Shown here in pieces: positions 4,531-57,275 of a DNA stretch of 64,000 bases. This stretch comes from Shigella phage vb_GEC_SH_GT. The position numbers and the translations under genes were made by a program. Each line of letters starts with the position of its first letter. The first letter of the stretch is position 1. Below the pieces are notes generated by a model that searched no databases, was not told the DNA's origin, and saw only the letters and a program-made list of their open reading frames with translations. The DNA lies in the sequence record OR887633. The stretch is one strand, 5' to 3'.

Positions 4531-5133
4531 TTATAGATTAAATCCTTCAAAGTCAAGAGTATAGATAGTGTATGTTGAATACTTTTTATACTCGTATCTA
4601 TCCGCAATTCTAAATACACTTCCAGCTGGTATCATTACTTCTTGTTCATCTGAAACTAATTCCATATTACGATAGCGATGGCTATCTGGAAACTTAAAAC
4701 TTGGACTATATTCTTTACAACGTAGAGCTTTTATAGCATACTCCTGAAAATTAAATACCATAGGAGCTTTGAATTCAAAAATAACTTGTGTATTGTATTC
4801 TAATCCAGAAGCAAAATGCAGAGCTATATTTTTATCATATGAAGCTGATACTACTTTATCGAATGTAATAATATCAATTCCTTGATTTAACGCCTGCTTA
4901 GTCTCAACTGGAACACCTCTCCAAAGAGGTTTATCGTTTGGAACCAAACGAGATTTGATTATTTCATTTAACCAAGAATGATCGTCTGGCTTATTAGTAA
5001 TACAATGAATTAAAAGTTCAATTTCAGATAAATTAAATCCTTCAGAAAGTAATTCTTCGCGAATAGAAGCACGCACCGATGCATCCATTGATTTGATTTT
5101 AAAATCTTTTAATTGCATTGCTGAATATTTCAT
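4531..5133 (-). CDS. modA: mono-ADP-ribosyltransferase ModA
   Basis: 200 aa; R-S-E ART triad context (LWRGV, SAS, QEVMIP); position between srd and modB. Confidence 0.8.
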   Translation of the reverse strand: MKYSAMQLKDFKIKSMDASVRASIREELLSEGFNLSEIELLIHCITNKPDDHSWLNEIIKSRLVPNDKPLWRGVPVETKQALNQGIDIITFDKVVSASYDKNIALHFASGLEYNTQVIFEFKAPMVFNFQEYAIKALRCKEYSPSFKFPDSHRYRNMELVSDEQEVMIPAGSVFRIADRYEYKKYSTYTIYTLDFEGFNL

Positions 5134-5765
5134 TCAACTACCTCAATATCATACACTTTAAATGTTCCAAATGAATCGTGTAATTTTTCTTTTGAAATAG
5201 AAGTTATTTTATACTTTCCAATTGGAATCATCCATTCTTGTTCATGTACAATCATCATTAAGTTATCAGTACGTTCTGAATCTAATCCATCGGTATCTTC
5301 ATATGTATACTTAAACTCAGTATTAGGAGAAGAAAGTATAATATCGCTGATATGGTCAGAGTAATTAAAAGCTTTATCAGTTTTTAAGCGAAATATTATT
5401 TCAGTGAAATATTCAGCATAAGAAAAAGAACACGCTGTATGCAAACTAGTAGTAAATGAATCTACTCTGTTCGTTGAAAACACTTCTCCAACTTGTAAAT
5501 CTTTAATGAGTTCTTTTGTCGATTTTGATATACCACGATATAACTGATAAGGTGATTCAGTTAAATGCTTTTTAATGATTTTATTCAACTGCCGATGAAG
5601 AGCTTCATTCTTTTTGGCTTCCATACATTGCCAAAGAACTGACTGTTCAAAGTCAGTAAATTTTTCACAGACCTTTTTATACATATCATATTGAAAATCG
5701 ACACTTTCAGCTTTTATAGATAACTGTTCAACATCTGCAGGATTAATAATCATGATAGCCTCCAT
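5130..5765 (-). CDS. modB: mono-ADP-ribosyltransferase ModB
   Basis: 211 aa paralog of ModA (YRGIS, FSTNR, EQEWMIP); overlaps modA by 4 nt. Confidence 0.75.
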   Translation of the reverse strand: MEAIMIINPADVEQLSIKAESVDFQYDMYKKVCEKFTDFEQSVLWQCMEAKKNEALHRQLNKIIKKHLTESPYQLYRGISKSTKELIKDLQVGEVFSTNRVDSFTTSLHTACSFSYAEYFTEIIFRLKTDKAFNYSDHISDIILSSPNTEFKYTYEDTDGLDSERTDNLMMIVHEQEWMIPIGKYKITSISKEKLHDSFGTFKVYDIEVVE

Positions 5766-10532: not shown

Positions 10533-10733
10533 ATGGTACAAAAATTAATGGCACTTGTTAATGCCATCAAAGGTAATAAGAAACGTATAGCTTTTACTAT
10601 TTCTGCTATGATAGGAATTTTACTTTGGAATTTTGTTTTATCGCCAGTTGCTATTGCTCATGGCGTTAGTATTCCAGTAGTTACTCTTGATACATTCGTA
10701 GATTTAGCATTTGCTTTAGTTGGGTTAATTTAA
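10533..10733 (+). CDS. small hydrophobic membrane protein (66 aa), plus strand
   Basis: Strong SD AAAGGAGGA 7 nt before ATG; two predicted TM segments; lies in the dam-61 intergenic gap, opposite to flanking genes. Confidence 0.4.
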   Translation: MVQKLMALVNAIKGNKKRIAFTISAMIGILLWNFVLSPVAIAHGVSIPVVTLDTFVDLAFALVGLI

Positions 10734-11758
10734 ATCTTAGCATATTTAGATAGCCGCATTTTAGCCATTAACCCCTGGGCAATATTATTTTTCATATATT
10801 CCATAATTTGTTCAGGGGTTGCACCTTCCTTTCTAATCATATCATTAACATCTTTTGATTTCCAGGGAGATTTATCCCAAAACATAACCCTTTCTCCTGC
10901 ATCAACTAATTTAGTCATTCGTTTAATAGTGTCAGGGTGACGAGGTTCATTATCTAAAACCCACACTCGTCTATCTTTAAATGGAACAACTTCTAGGTCT
11001 AATTGACCACCCGTAATAGCTATACCATTTTCAATAAAAAGTGAATCTATAGGTCCTTCTAGAACATATACATCACCATCTTTAACTCGTTCGACTCCAT
11101 AGATTTTTGTTGCTTCAGGATAAGCTTTGATGGTGATATATTTTTGAGGAGCATCTTTCTTTAATGCGCGTCCTTGAAAAGACTCAGCTTTTCCATTAGC
11201 ATTATAAATTGGAATAACAAGACGAGGCTCGGGTATTTCCTTTTTATATGTTCCTGGTGCTATACTATTAACTAATTTAGGCCATTCAGTTGTAAACCAA
11301 AGATATTTCCATTTATCCTTTGGAATACAACGAGCTTTTACGTATTTTATAATTGGATGGTCTTCCGCCAGTTTATCCAATCTAATGCATGACGGAAGAG
11401 ATTTAATTATTTTCTTCTCGGGTTGTTTAGGAAGTTCTTTAGGTTTTTCTACTGGACGACTTTTACCTTTTTCTTTTCTTATTTCAAAGATATACTCACG
11501 ATATAAATCAGGTTCAAACTCCTTTAAATATATTCCGATTGGTGCATGATAGTTACAGTTATAACAATGAATATTTCCTTCATTATTATCACCATAATAC
11601 CATCCACGGGCTTTATTTTGGTCGGTTTTTGAATCTCCACAAACAGGGCATCTAAACCGTAATTTAAAAGTTGAACTATTATTTACTTGTGTGAATTTAG
11701 GTAAATGAGCTAATGCACGATATGCAAACTCATTATCAATCCAAGGTATTGATGACAT
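10730..11758 (-). CDS. 61: DNA primase gp61
   Basis: 342 aa; N-terminal Zn ribbon CPVCGDS...CYNC; T4 gp61 length and position. Confidence 0.9.
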   Translation of the reverse strand: MSSIPWIDNEFAYRALAHLPKFTQVNNSSTFKLRFRCPVCGDSKTDQNKARGWYYGDNNEGNIHCYNCNYHAPIGIYLKEFEPDLYREYIFEIRKEKGKSRPVEKPKELPKQPEKKIIKSLPSCIRLDKLAEDHPIIKYVKARCIPKDKWKYLWFTTEWPKLVNSIAPGTYKKEIPEPRLVIPIYNANGKAESFQGRALKKDAPQKYITIKAYPEATKIYGVERVKDGDVYVLEGPIDSLFIENGIAITGGQLDLEVVPFKDRRVWVLDNEPRHPDTIKRMTKLVDAGERVMFWDKSPWKSKDVNDMIRKEGATPEQIMEYMKNNIAQGLMAKMRLSKYAKI

Positions 11759-11761
11759 TTT

Positions 11762-11926
11762 TACTCTTCTTTTTCTTTAGATTCCTCTTTTTTCTTTTTA
11801 GGAATCTGTTCAGGACCTTTATTTACTACAGCGCCTGACGTTGTTCCAGTAGAGATATTTTCAGGATTACCACCTGAATCTCCAGCGACCATATCTTCTT
11901 TAATAAATTCTTTATATGTTTTCATA
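11762..11926 (-). CDS. small hypothetical protein (54 aa, 61.1 position)
   Basis: Hand-translated ORF MKTYKEFIKEDMVAGDSGG...KKKEESKEKEE filling the gap after gene 61; below ORF-track size cutoff. Confidence 0.35.
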
Positions 11927-12283
11927 TTAACCTCTATTCATAAAAGCATTAAAAATTTGGTCATCAATTGATGGAACAGCAACCTTTTCTACATCATTTA
12001 ACAAATCATTAATTTCATCAGATAGCATAACGCATGTACCTTTATTTCCTGTAATTGTTACTGCGCAATTACGAACGTTTTCTTTATCAAATTTTAGGTT
12101 AATATTTTCGTAGTGAAAATCCTTTAATGCCGAATATATTTTTAAAATGAAATTGTCTTTTACTACAATAAACCCAACCTCACTATTAAAACGAGGTTCA
12201 TGGAAGCTGTAATAAACCTTTTCATCTATAAAATCGTATGAAATTTTTTCCATTTTTAAATATGAAAATTCAGAACTATACAT
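11927..12283 (-). CDS. hypothetical protein (118 aa, 61.2 position)
   Basis: ORF between 61.1 and sp; no motif. Confidence 0.5.
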   Translation of the reverse strand: MYSSEFSYLKMEKISYDFIDEKVYYSFHEPRFNSEVGFIVVKDNFILKIYSALKDFHYENINLKFDKENVRNCAVTITGNKGTCVMLSDEINDLLNDVEKVAVPSIDDQIFNAFMNRG

Positions 12284-12295
12284 ATTAACCTCTAA

Positions 12296-12589
12296 TTACT
12301 CACCTACCACTTCAGCGATGATATTTTTATTATTAAAGTTTTTATCGCAATACAAAACGTAATTATACTGCATTACACCACCAGACTTAAGCTGTTTTTG
12401 CACTTCAGCTTTCATTTCAGGACGATCACGCTCAACGATATTCATAATATCTGCTTCAATTTGAGTTTCAACTTCAGTCTGATCTGCAGTCATAGACCAT
12501 TCACACAAGTCTTTATCATAACCCGCCATAGCAGGCTGAGCAGCGCAAGAAGATAAAGCAAAAATTGCAGCAAAGATAAATTTTTTCAT
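12296..12589 (-). CDS. sp: Spackle-like periplasmic protein (superinfection exclusion, lysozyme inhibitor)
   Basis: 97 aa; cleavable signal peptide MKKFIFAAIFALSSCAAQPAMA; size and position as T4 sp (61.3). Confidence 0.75.
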   Translation of the reverse strand: MKKFIFAAIFALSSCAAQPAMAGYDKDLCEWSMTADQTEVETQIEADIMNIVERDRPEMKAEVQKQLKSGGVMQYNYVLYCDKNFNNKNIIAEVVGE

Positions 12590-12694
12590 GATAATCTCCT
12601 CAGTAGTTTATGTTTATATAGTATCTCAATTTTCAACAAAAGTAAACACTAGTAGAAGCAAACAGACAAATTGCAATAATTGGTGATTTCAGTT

Positions 12695-12877
12695 TCATTC
12701 TTCTCCTCCTTCATGTTGATGAACATATTCTTTTTCAAGTCTAGAGCACAAGTTTTCATATTCAACTAATAAGAGTGAATCAAGTGCGTTATTTCTATGC
12801 TGACACCGTTCTTGTAAAGAATCCATCTCTGAACGTTGTTCTTGTGTTAATAATTGATAACCTGATACTTTAGACAT
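12695..12877 (-). CDS. hypothetical protein (60 aa)
   Basis: Track ORF begins at TTG (MENKM artefact); trimmed to ATG after SD; own early promoter 12911..12942. Confidence 0.45.
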   Translation of the reverse strand: MSKVSGYQLLTQEQRSEMDSLQERCQHRNNALDSLLLVEYENLCSRLEKEYVHQHEGGEE

Positions 12878-12910
12878 TTTGTTCTCCATTTACTCGTTTG
12901 TTTTGATAGG

Positions 12911-12942
12911 TCTATAATAACATGTTTAAAACAAAAGTAAAC
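12911..12942 (-). promoter_or_regulatory. T4-type early promoter
   Basis: Minus strand GTTTAC, spacer, TATTATAG. Confidence 0.5.
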
Positions 12943-13196
12943 TATTTTATTTCCTCAAGTTCGTTAATCAATAAAAGTTCTCTGACACTAAAAACAAAGA
13001 AAAATGTGTTCCCATCAACCAGAGCATGACCGCTAATAGAACACCCTCTGCGGAATTTAGAAACTTCACAATCTAGAACTGTAAAGGGTTTTAATCCTAT
13101 GACTTTAGCTGTGCGTCTATTCAGTTCACAACCACTTGCGAATTTTTCCAAATCTTCTTCTGATTTAAACTGATATTCTCTATTAACTAGCATCAT
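12942..13196 (-). CDS. hypothetical protein (84 aa)
   Basis: Own early promoter 13227..13258; no motif. Confidence 0.45.
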   Translation of the reverse strand: MMLVNREYQFKSEEDLEKFASGCELNRRTAKVIGLKPFTVLDCEVSKFRRGCSISGHALVDGNTFFFVFSVRELLLINELEEIK

Positions 13197-13226
13197 TTTC
13201 TTTTCTCCGCGATTAGCTGATAGAAT

Positions 13227-13258
13227 TACTATAACACAACTCTATCAGCTTGTAAACT
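13227..13258 (-). promoter_or_regulatory. T4-type early promoter
   Basis: Minus strand GTTTAC...GTTATAGTA. Confidence 0.5.
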
Positions 13259-13259
13259 A

Positions 13260-13544
13260 CTATTTTACTAGCACCAATAACTGTTTCTCTAACTTGACGA
13301 TTTTACGAAAGTATCTTTTGCATTGGCGAATCTGTCGCTTCGTAGGGCGCACAGCAAACTTAATAAATTCCACTCGACCAAATGGAGGACTTTCTTCTGC
13401 TGGAATATCTAACACCAATTCCCACGTATCTGCAACAAGTGCTTTGAATTGAGTATTTTTCCTGACATTATACGGAGTAGGTTTAAATAAAACAATGTGC
13501 ATATTATCCTCGGCAATCCACTTCGCATACTTTCTTGTCATCAA
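13260..13544 (-). CDS. hypothetical basic protein (94 aa)
   Basis: ORF downstream of dmd, overlapping it by 41 nt (start may be further in). Confidence 0.4.
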   Translation of the reverse strand: MMTRKYAKWIAEDNMHIVLFKPTPYNVRKNTQFKALVADTWELVLDIPAEESPPFGRVEFIKFAVRPTKRQIRQCKRYFRKIVKLEKQLLVLVK

Positions 13545-13686
13545 TGAAAGCTTTAACTAGTGCTTTATTAACTTCAGCATATTGAGTAGTAGCCCATTGA
13601 ACGTCATCTTTCATCATTGTGATTTCTTTAGTAAACATGCTTTCATTCTTAAACCACCCCATAAAAACTACCTTTACCAATTCCAT
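13504..13686 (-). CDS. dmd: Dmd (antitoxin against RnlA/LsoA RNases)
   Basis: 60 aa MELVKVVFMGWFKNESMF...; size and position immediately downstream of gene 41 as T4 dmd (61.5). Confidence 0.85.
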   Translation of the reverse strand: MELVKVVFMGWFKNESMFTKEITMMKDDVQWATTQYAEVNKALVKAFIDDKKVCEVDCRG

Positions 13687-13714
13687 AACAATCTCCCCAT
13701 TTAACCAACAAGAC

Positions 13715-13745
13715 TACTATACCATAGTCTTGTCAGCTTGTAAAC
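13715..13745 (-). promoter_or_regulatory. T4-type early promoter upstream of dmd
   Basis: Minus strand GTTTACAAGCTGACAAGACTATGGTATAGTAG. Confidence 0.6.
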
Positions 13746-15172
13746 TAAAATTTTAATTCATTTGCCAAAGCATCTAACTGAGCTCGAGCCGATTCATTTC
13801 TTTGATAGCGATTCTGCTCAGCTTGAATCTGCTGTGAACCTGCCACTTCGTTCACTTCAGTTGGAGTAGAATCTTGTTCAATTTCTACCCATTTCTGATT
13901 TCCTTTTTGAACACCCATCAAAAACTTATTCCATTTATTCTTATCACCATATCGTGATTTGATTTGCTTAATTAGTTGTTGTTCAGCAGCTGCTAACTCC
14001 TCGGTTTCAATGACCGCAAGCATAAAATCGGCTGTTGCTGGAAGACCGGCAGATTCTGCAATATCGCTCATGTTAACATCAGAAGAATCCCAAGCTTGCT
14101 TACCAACCTGTGCTGCAGTCCAAAGAACAGTTTCGGTTTCAACAGCCAGAGCACGCAATTCTTCTGCGATGGCTTTAACAGTTGTGTAACTATTTTCCGA
14201 ATAAACTCTGATGCGGCAAGATTTACAAATACCCAGATAGTCAACAATAATGATTGTTGGAACAAAATTCTTCTTGAGCTTCAATTCGTTTAAAAGAGAT
14301 CGAAATGTATTAGCGTCTGCTCCACCAGTAGGATACTGTTTAACGATTAAACGACCGAGAGTAGATTTCTCACGCCATTTTTCCATTTTTCCTTTATACT
14401 CAGCATAAGAAATATGCCCATCATCAATGTCATCAAGAGAAACATCAAGCATATTAGCATCAATACGCTTAGCACAAACTTCTTCTGCCATTTCCATGGA
14501 AATGTAAAGAACATTATGTCCGAGCTGCAAATAATCTGCTGCCAATGAACACAGACCTAATGACTTACCAACGTTAACACCAGCCATTAAAACGTTCAGT
14601 GTTCCAGTTTCAGCTCCGCCTTTAGTAATTTTATTTAGAATTTTGAGTTTAAATGGAACCTTACGAGCTTTATTCATATAAGATAGCCAACGTGCTTCGT
14701 AGTCATCCATCCAATCATGACCAACGTAGCTATCAAATGAAATTGATAATGCTTGGCGCATGATGTCAGGAATAGCACCTACATCTGGCATTTTCTTATT
14801 TCGTTTTTCCGGAGGAAGCTCAGCATTAGTTTGAATTTCAATTATTTTAGATGTGGCGTTAAACATCGCCCTTTGCTGAACATATTTTTCTGTTTCTTTT
14901 ACTAACCAGCTGTGGTCTTCCGGAGAATCGGTTAGTTTTGAAATAAGTGTTTTTACACCAGAATATTCTGTTTCAGTAAATGAACTATTTTCTAATGCAA
15001 CATTTAACGCATTAATAGATGGAACGCTATGATACTCGTTAACATGAGATTTAATTAATTTGAATGTATTTTTAGCTGGACCACTTTCAAAATATTCTGA
15101 ATCCATATATGGCCAAACTTTTGAAAAATAAGCTTGATCAAATATGAGATGAGAAAGAATAATTTCTACCAC
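13745..15172 (-). CDS. 41: replicative DNA helicase gp41 (DnaB family)
   Basis: 475 aa; Walker A GVNVGKS, DnaB-like C-terminal domain. Confidence 0.95.
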   Translation of the reverse strand: MVEIILSHLIFDQAYFSKVWPYMDSEYFESGPAKNTFKLIKSHVNEYHSVPSINALNVALENSSFTETEYSGVKTLISKLTDSPEDHSWLVKETEKYVQQRAMFNATSKIIEIQTNAELPPEKRNKKMPDVGAIPDIMRQALSISFDSYVGHDWMDDYEARWLSYMNKARKVPFKLKILNKITKGGAETGTLNVLMAGVNVGKSLGLCSLAADYLQLGHNVLYISMEMAEEVCAKRIDANMLDVSLDDIDDGHISYAEYKGKMEKWREKSTLGRLIVKQYPTGGADANTFRSLLNELKLKKNFVPTIIIVDYLGICKSCRIRVYSENSYTTVKAIAEELRALAVETETVLWTAAQVGKQAWDSSDVNMSDIAESAGLPATADFMLAVIETEELAAAEQQLIKQIKSRYGDKNKWNKFLMGVQKGNQKWVEIEQDSTPTEVNEVAGSQQIQAEQNRYQRNESARAQLDALANELKF

Positions 15173-57242: not shown

Positions 57243-57275
57243 TGTATAGTATCAAAACCCTTGGAGGAAGTAAAC
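57243..57275 (-). promoter_or_regulatory. T4-type early promoter upstream of denV
   Basis: Minus strand GTTTAC...TACTATACAT. Confidence 0.55.

Follow-up and report, generated by a model that had tools for sequence, protein, structure and literature searches.

In the 64-kb stretch of Shigella phage vb_GEC_SH_GT (OR887633) analyzed here, which is called the window and consists of Tequatrovirus (T4-like phage) DNA, the interval between the spackle gene sp and the antitoxin gene dmd contains two small open reading frames (ORFs), ORF-A and ORF-B, that are absent from T4. These are mobile accessory genes carried in independently assorting early cassettes, and comparison with related phages shows that the islet is shuffled by homologous recombination between repeated regulatory elements (a -35 block, a ribosome-binding site and an AT-rich upstream stretch), in the way described for promoter-early stem-loop (PeSL) cassettes. 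The sp-dmd interval forms part of the hyperplastic early region that extends from gene 41 to gene 61, the published 'anti-TA island' (TA, toxin-antitoxin). Three inhibitors of TA defence (Dmd, TifA and AdfA) are already known from this region of T-even phages, and the islet takes up further single-gene cassettes, whose exact crossover points are visible in the window. By association, ORF-A and ORF-B might be host-specific counter-defence or anti-toxin accessory factors that would be dispensable in hosts without the target, a reading which we favor tentatively.

Two extra genes between dmd and sp

ORF-B (12942..13196, 84 amino acids) and ORF-A (12695..12877, 60 amino acids) are encoded, like all genes of the islet, on the minus strand, and the order of transcription begins with the helicase gene 41 at 13745-15172 and continues with dmd, an ORF of up to 94 amino acids, ORF-B, ORF-A and sp. 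The borders of the interval are set by dmd (61.5, 13504..13686), which encodes the antitoxin against RnlA/LsoA and the 60-residue product of which has 100% identity to T4 Dmd and matches the Pfam family Dmd over its full length (1.6e-46), and by sp (61.3, 12296..12589), with a match to T4_Spackle (2.8e-45). As T4 (NC_000866) holds gene 61.4 as the sole gene between dmd and sp, two ORFs are extra in the window. The third ORF, which in its maximal form (13260-13544, 94 amino acids) begins at a TTG within dmd, was rejected as a novel gene, for it is tifA (61.4, 13260..13502, 80 amino acids), with a match to DUF7279 and 95% identity to T4 gp61.4. The maximal ORF around ORF-A (12695-12889) would encode 64 amino acids and encodes 60 when begun at its second ATG, at 12877. 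A preliminary description of the window had placed three small ORFs between sp and dmd, had put fewer of them in T4, and had assigned a T4-type early promoter to two of them and to dmd. The ORF positions together with the Dmd and T4_Spackle matches, the T4 record, and the motifs located before ORF-B, ORF-A and dmd bear this out. Its sizes of 60 (from the ATG at 12877) and 84 amino acids also stand, but 94 has to be replaced by 80, and its term 'additional' fits ORF-A and ORF-B but not the third ORF, which is also present in T4.

The sp-dmd stretch is 98.8% identical to that of phage IME339 and 98.5% identical to that of ime09, and 514 phage records match it. ORF-A was detected in 20 and ORF-B in 70 of these approximately 514 related records. 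When the locus was compared across T-even genomes, as the preliminary description had proposed, all four combinations were seen: neither cassette is present in T4, only ORF-B in SH7 and L017, only ORF-A in IsaacDaniel and Ec_MI-02, and both in the window and in ime09, so that all three ORFs of the window recur in ime09 and two of them in SH7. The whole 41-61 interval, compared in 15 loci, carries a variable set of families, comprising dmd, tifA, ORF-B, ORF-A, sp, a 73-residue protein that clusters with tifA, a long AdfA and a short form of 118 amino acids, and at least five further clusters of small ORFs. Among cultured phages, ORF-A occurs only in the 20 records, all from Tequatrovirus and with 96.7-100% identity, whereas ORF-B occurs in 83 phage records, of which 70 are Tequatroviruses with at least 95% identity and 13 are of the Gaprivervirus type with about 57%.

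Early promoters, cassette joints and selection

Both strands of the window were searched for the early-promoter motif GTTTAC-N16-18-TAnnnT; the minus strand has 24 copies and the plus strand a single one, and this strand bias of 24:1 rules out that the matches are due to chance. Four copies lie in the islet and start at 13745 (dmd), 13257 (ORF-B), 12942 (ORF-A) and 12647 (sp), and tifA is without a promoter of its own. The promoters of the dmd-tifA operon (13716..13745, GTTTAC-N18-TATAGT with TG ahead of the -10 element) and of ORF-B (13228..13257, GTTTAC-N18-TATAGT) belong to modules that form a 64-nt direct repeat (D1) with 70% identity. In the promoter of ORF-A (12914..12942, GTTTAC-N17-TATTAT), the -35 block GTTTACTTTTGTT recurs as direct repeat D3 at the promoter of sp (12618..12647, GTTTAC-N18-TACTAT), which constitutes the distal boundary repeat of the ORF-A cassette. 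All four promoters also fit the pattern TTTACW-N16-17-TA.... behind AAAATA. The ribosome-binding sites of ORF-B (13203..13208) and of ORF-A (12882..12887, 6 nt upstream of the ATG at 12877), both on the minus strand, read GGAGAA, and GGAG, the motif that the T4 nuclease RegB likewise targets on early mRNAs, is present in all four ribosome-binding sites of the islet.

The different arrangements can be traced to joints within these elements. SH7 lacks exactly the 295 bp lying between the two GTTTACTTTTGTT blocks of the ORF-A and sp promoters. In Ec_MI-02 and IsaacDaniel, ORF-B and the ORF-A promoter are missing and the ORF-B promoter drives ORF-A, the joint being the GGAGAA shared by the ribosome-binding sites of ORF-B and ORF-A, so that the site of ORF-B marks the crossover microhomology. 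In the T4-type arrangement the joint is located inside the 3' end of tifA, beside an AAAATA stretch. According to the published descriptions of PeSL cassettes, ORFans are gained, lost and swapped through recombination, and crossovers were observed between the ribosome-binding site and the -10 element (Arbiol 2010, PMC2839356; Comeau 2014, PMC4122927).

Two of the islet promoters overlap with hairpins on the minus strand that cover the spacer and the -10 element, one of 15 bp at the dmd promoter (13703..13738; minimum free energy -21.2 kcal/mol, z -4.4) and one of 14 bp at the ORF-B promoter (13215..13250, inverted repeat I11; -21.0 kcal/mol, z -3.8). The sequences of their stems differ but the pairing is preserved. 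No significant hairpin was found at the promoters of ORF-A (z -0.2) or sp, and no U-tract terminator was found after the hairpins of the dmd and ORF-B promoters. In the window as a whole, strong hairpins (z below -2.5) accompany 8 of the 24 early-promoter motifs, compared with 3% of random controls. The motifs that bear them start on the minus strand at 57275, 54169, 49341, 44856, 41873, 13745, 13257 and 616, and in all eight cases the promoter spacer pairs with the 5' untranslated region, the hairpin taking in the GGAG ribosome-binding site in several of them. Since both hairpin arms occur together only in transcripts that read through from upstream, the promoter hairpins could bring about transcription attenuation or translational masking of read-through RNA.

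Comparison with diverged homologues indicates that both extra ORFs are real genes under purifying selection, because the proportion of nonsynonymous differences (pN) is far below the saturated proportion of synonymous differences (pS, 0.75-0.80 for both genes), with pN values of 0.13-0.30 for ORF-B and 0.27-0.38 for ORF-A. For ORF-B the pN/pS ratio is about 0.17 when it is compared with its homologues from the metagenomic T4-like loci L026 and L027. Full-length homologues of ORF-B range from 55 to 81% identity, and the metagenomic ones among them, with 77-81% identity, retain the motif FRRGCSISGHA. Shuffling of the PeSL type can move ORFans without selection (PMC2839356), the spread of the cassettes is patchy and their closest copies are almost identical, which would be expected if they were near-neutral passengers, re-inserted by promoter-mediated shuffling and without important function in the window phage. 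This is very improbable given the clear purifying selection over saturated synonymous divergence, the retention of start, stop, length and motifs in distant homologues, and the intact promoters and ribosome-binding sites in every arrangement, the rewired ORF-A-only form included.

Possible functions of ORF-B and ORF-A

The 'anti-TA island' was proposed in 2022 for the region with dmd, tifA and adfA (61.2), and the other genes of this region were considered attractive anti-toxin candidates (Srikant et al., 2022, PMC9391042). The preliminary description, which regarded the additional early genes as candidate anti-defence factors by guilt by association, thus gave a reasonable interpretation that had largely been anticipated in print, and tifA is more than a mere candidate. 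ORF-A and ORF-B are uncharacterized accessory early cassettes in this known hyperplastic anti-TA islet. They are independent immediate-early cassettes behind the dmd-tifA operon, the two products of which inhibit host endoribonuclease toxins, and in each of them one small ORF is preceded by its own early promoter and by a ribosome-binding site with GGAG. In the mechanism that we propose, the products of ORF-A and ORF-B, which seem too small for enzymes, would therefore most probably function as binding proteins during the first minutes of an infection. ORF-B would most likely bind RNA or an RNA-cleaving host protein and shield early phage transcripts as Dmd and TifA do, and ORF-A, as an acidic protein that is predicted to be helical, would most likely bind and block a host protein, probably one that binds nucleic acids. 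This counter-defence reading draws on the published island, the early expression signals, the small size of the products, their patchy spread, the independent assortment of the cassettes, the replacement of dmd described below and the mobile-element contexts of ORF-A.

ORF-B falls into phrog_2980, 'goF mRNA metabolism modulator' (3.2e-20), of the PHROGs database. Its first approximately 43 residues resemble T4 GoF (37% identity over 41 residues in BLASTP, E 2e-8; 96.9% probability over 43 columns in hhalign), and the N-terminal motif VN..YQFK....PF.(I/V)LD is common to both proteins. A linker and a variable C-terminal domain are missing, and ORF-B ends at residue 84 after a short acidic tail. 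Because of the extent of this similarity and the early end of the protein, ORF-B is predicted to be a stand-alone GoF N-terminal-like domain with an SH3/LSm-like small barrel fold. An AlphaFold2 (AF2) model shows a small beta-barrel (predicted local distance difference test, pLDDT, 75.5), with which Foldseek retrieved T4 MotB.1 weakly (E 0.01), although the sequences of ORF-B and MotB.1 show no significant similarity, and otherwise generic small barrels associated with RNA or translation (EF-P domain I, KOW, FeoA). A Foldseek search of the PDB gave nothing below E 0.19, and for this reason a likeness of ORF-B to Dmd was rejected.

These relationships also give rise to a different explanation, according to which ORF-B would be an RNA-binding barrel that, in the manner of GoF, modulates the stability or the translation of early mRNA of the phage, for instance in the gene 41 region, and ORF-A could be a host-takeover regulator. 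The islet is located directly downstream of gene 41, the fold search points to RNA- and translation-associated barrels, an LSm-like N-terminal fold has been predicted for the GoF/MotB.1/Frd.2 family, and GoF(D25Y), which provides the only known phenotype of the family, raises the stability of gene 41 mRNA (Kim et al., 2025, PMC12152347). In the same study, however, the reporter did not respond to wild-type GoF or MotB.1 and the effect of D25Y was regarded as a gain of function, and in ORF-B a glycine aligns with D25 of GoF. ORF-B is also missing from most Tequatroviruses, including T4, which would be surprising if it regulated conserved early genes, and it swaps with dmd in two loci. We therefore consider a role as GoF-type modulator rather unlikely, albeit credible.

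The position of ORF-B relative to dmd varies. In phage SP18, a homologue of ORF-B is the first gene past gene 41, and two more small genes and then dmd follow it. In L026 and L027, gene 41 is succeeded by an ORF of 253 amino acids, then by an early promoter with the ORF-B homologue and tifA, which are translationally coupled via TAAATG, and by a further early promoter with sp; no dmd was found between gene 41 and sp. From this order it is evident that ORF-B can occupy the place of dmd as the first gene of the operon with tifA. As the window and SP18 have both genes, ORF-B and dmd are not simple alleles. The ORF of 253 amino acids (3179-3940 in L026 and 3179-3940 in L027) has an early promoter and a hairpin of its own, but neither a recorded Pfam domain nor a match in PHROGs. 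A bolder and, in our opinion, unlikely extension of the counter-defence reading is that ORF-B is an alternative to Dmd, namely an SH3/LSm-like antitoxin mimic that neutralizes another endoribonuclease toxin, either by itself or jointly with TifA, and that ORF-A founds an anti-defence family of lytic phages and conjugative plasmids; for ORF-B, this would explain why some T4-like phages have it in the place of dmd before tifA.

ORF-A (phrog_37915, 1.7e-44) has an isoelectric point of 4.9 and a net charge of -6, and its AF2 model, obtained from the single sequence, consists of one long helix (residues 12-56, pLDDT 87.8). It forms a single cluster in an index of 5.8 billion proteins, and when 1.84 billion representatives were searched exhaustively with HMMER, nine relatives emerged (E 1.6e-11 to 4e-4) that share a conserved region of 55 residues with the motif GYxLLTxEQRxEMDxLxERxTH..TMxF..LDA..LxEYExLCxRLExEY. 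No relatives were found in two scans of 185,579 species represented by one genome each; a tblastn search of plasmids revealed one unannotated copy, in an uninformative context on a 103-kb linear plasmid of Vibrio fluvialis, and a scan of IMG/VR revealed one further locus of the family. In two longer proteins, P0010 (169 amino acids, 6001-6510 in L007) and P0012 (115 amino acids), the ORF-A domain constitutes the C-terminal part behind an unrelated N-terminal region, and this architecture suggests that the domain may be a portable binding module.

Relatives of ORF-A are located on phage-like contigs (L006, L007 and L014), within a run of many small same-strand ORFs (L009) and, on a conjugative or plasmid-like contig (L011), with a TraG-type coupling protein and a DtrJ-like gene as neighbors. 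At 106-1385 of L013, a second conjugative or plasmid-like contig, which is metagenomic and 27 kb long, the relative lies right downstream of a DUF3560 gene, in a same-strand cluster with Toprim_2, ParA, ParB_N and ArdA, and about 4.4 kb from the ArdA anti-restriction gene. Judging from its gene context, L013 looks like a plasmid leading region, and such regions are enriched in anti-defence genes according to Samuel et al. (2024, PMC11541004). Pfam searches with the neighbors of the relatives in L006, L007, L011 and L013 remained mostly empty. The occurrence of ORF-A relatives on phage-like as well as conjugative or plasmid-like contigs suggests a use to mobile elements generally, and with sp, a superinfection-exclusion gene, as the immediate neighbor, the cassettes might serve competition among phages or between phages and plasmids, or affect host physiology, for example by superinfection exclusion or interference with co-resident elements, instead of evading immunity. 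As ORF-A and ORF-B, unlike Sp, have neither a signal peptide nor a membrane segment, such a role appears quite improbable.

Several observations weigh against the counter-defence reading. No experiment or database annotation ties ORF-A or ORF-B to any defence system, searches of Pfam, NCBIfam and PDB sequences gave no match for either protein, nor was a known anti-defence family matched, and in the literature, searched by protein accession and island keywords, no study of either was found. Position in the island is weak evidence, for sp in the same islet acts in superinfection exclusion and not in anti-defence. The single-helix model of ORF-A was made from one sequence and its relatives have four more residues in the middle of the protein, so that the fold is uncertain; most contexts of the ORF-A family are uninformative, and the membership of ORF-B in the GoF/MotB.1/Frd.2 family, with the shared N-terminal motif, provides a credible rival outside defence. 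Since T4 is a natural knock-out of ORF-A and ORF-B, both genes are simple to test. If either of them blocked a defence system, it would represent a new inhibitor family and perhaps help to identify the targeted host system, and for ORF-B this would be the first function for a GoF-type domain, of which Tevenvirinae carry several copies.

Neighboring genes and comparison with known systems

In the dmd-tifA operon, of which dmd is the first gene, TifA begins at the ATG at 13502, one base past the dmd stop, behind the ribosome-binding site GAGGA, and annotated homologues use the same start. Its DUF7279 match reaches 71.5 bits (gathering cut-off 24.5, E 5.4e-20). In T4, transcription of tifA starts at the promoter that precedes dmd, and the gene, formerly 61.4, was renamed by Srikant et al. 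(2022, PMC9391042); inhibition of ToxN was shown experimentally (PMC9391042, PMC10853763). It is thus tifA, co-transcribed with dmd, that occupies 13260-13502. A Pro-Thr helix cap and the basic residues K55, R56 and R59 are required for RNA binding and ToxN neutralization (PMC10853763). The window TifA keeps R52-P53-T54-K55-R56-R59, and its stretch VRPTKRQIRQCKRYFRK is identical to T4. The sole difference from T4 is the C-terminal tail ...EKQLLVLVK (3' end of tifA, 13260-13275), with which the protein has 80 instead of 85 amino acids, and this tail differs because the junction of the ORF-B cassette falls inside the 3' end of tifA. IsaacDaniel retains the T4-type tail ahead of the same promoter. 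A second ORF, of 73 amino acids and near 61.1, clusters with tifA in all-against-all BLAST clustering only; it is found in L005 (4877-5098) and in L021-L025 (near 4850-5480), which are Gaprivervirus-type (SP18) and related unclassified loci.

Beyond sp follow, on the same strand, the 61.2-position ORF (11927..12283, 118 amino acids), 61.1 (11761-11925) and the primase gene 61 (10730-11758). The 61.2-position ORF, which had been assigned to the same anti-defence neighborhood, does lie in the published island, but it is a relative of only the C-terminal half of AdfA and is without the key histidine. It matches the Pfam AdfA model above the cut-off (1.9e-8) at positions 113-211 of 211 only, and it is 35% identical to residues 109-208 of T4 AdfA, with a cysteine in place of the critical histidine of T4. 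A histidine at the position of RB69 R164H enables AdfA to bind DarT1 and is required to neutralize it, and T2 has been described as lacking adfA (PMC11825919). Because of the partial match and the cysteine, the ORF was rejected as a bona fide AdfA. The short form is the commoner variant, with 292 phage records at a minimum of 90% identity, T2 among them. In the IMG/VR locus L019 (4298-5291), a long AdfA (210 amino acids) and a short form (119 amino acids) occur in tandem, and the two are therefore paralogues and not alleles. In Hafnia phage IsaacDaniel (L028, 2780-2960), the 61.2 position is empty and sp is followed by 61.1.

When compared with AdfA (T4 gp61.2, anti-DarT factor A), the 61.2-position ORF thus resembles the C-terminal half, including the shared tail DDQIFNAFMNRG, but is without the N-terminal approximately 100 residues. 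The window TifA agrees with T4 gp61.4 in family, in the Pro-Thr cap and basic helix residues and in its place right after dmd in one operon, and differs in its shorter form with replaced last residues, whereas ORF-A and ORF-B are unrelated to TifA in sequence. Like Dmd, ORF-B is small, early and promoter-proximal, and its homologue fills the Dmd slot upstream of tifA in L026 and L027, but it is similar to Dmd neither in sequence nor in fold. From the GoF family, with which it shares the N-terminal motif and, according to the model, the barrel for which Foldseek lists MotB.1 weakly, ORF-B is set apart by its 84 residues without the variable C-terminal domain (141 amino acids in GoF), by the lack of conservation of D25 and by its location in the 41-61 islet and not near gene 39 or motB. 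With the anti-defence islands of plasmid leading regions (PMC11541004), the islet has in common unidirectional small early accessory genes, and relatives of ORF-A are found near ParA, ParB_N, Toprim and ArdA or near a TraG-type protein, although neither oriT nor a relaxase was identified on the L011 and L013 contigs. In comparison with the PeSL cassettes, the islet hairpins overlap the spacer and the -10 element whereas PeSL stem-loops precede the promoter immediately, a significant hairpin is present at no more than two of the four islet promoters, those of dmd and ORF-B, and a U-tract terminator is absent. Like PeSL cassettes, the islet cassettes have a TTTACW-N17-TAYWAT promoter with an AT-rich stretch, to which a ribosome-binding site and an ORFan are joined, and the breakpoints of the islet insertions and deletions lie inside these elements, including the segment between the ribosome-binding site and the -10 element, as in the published mini-circles.

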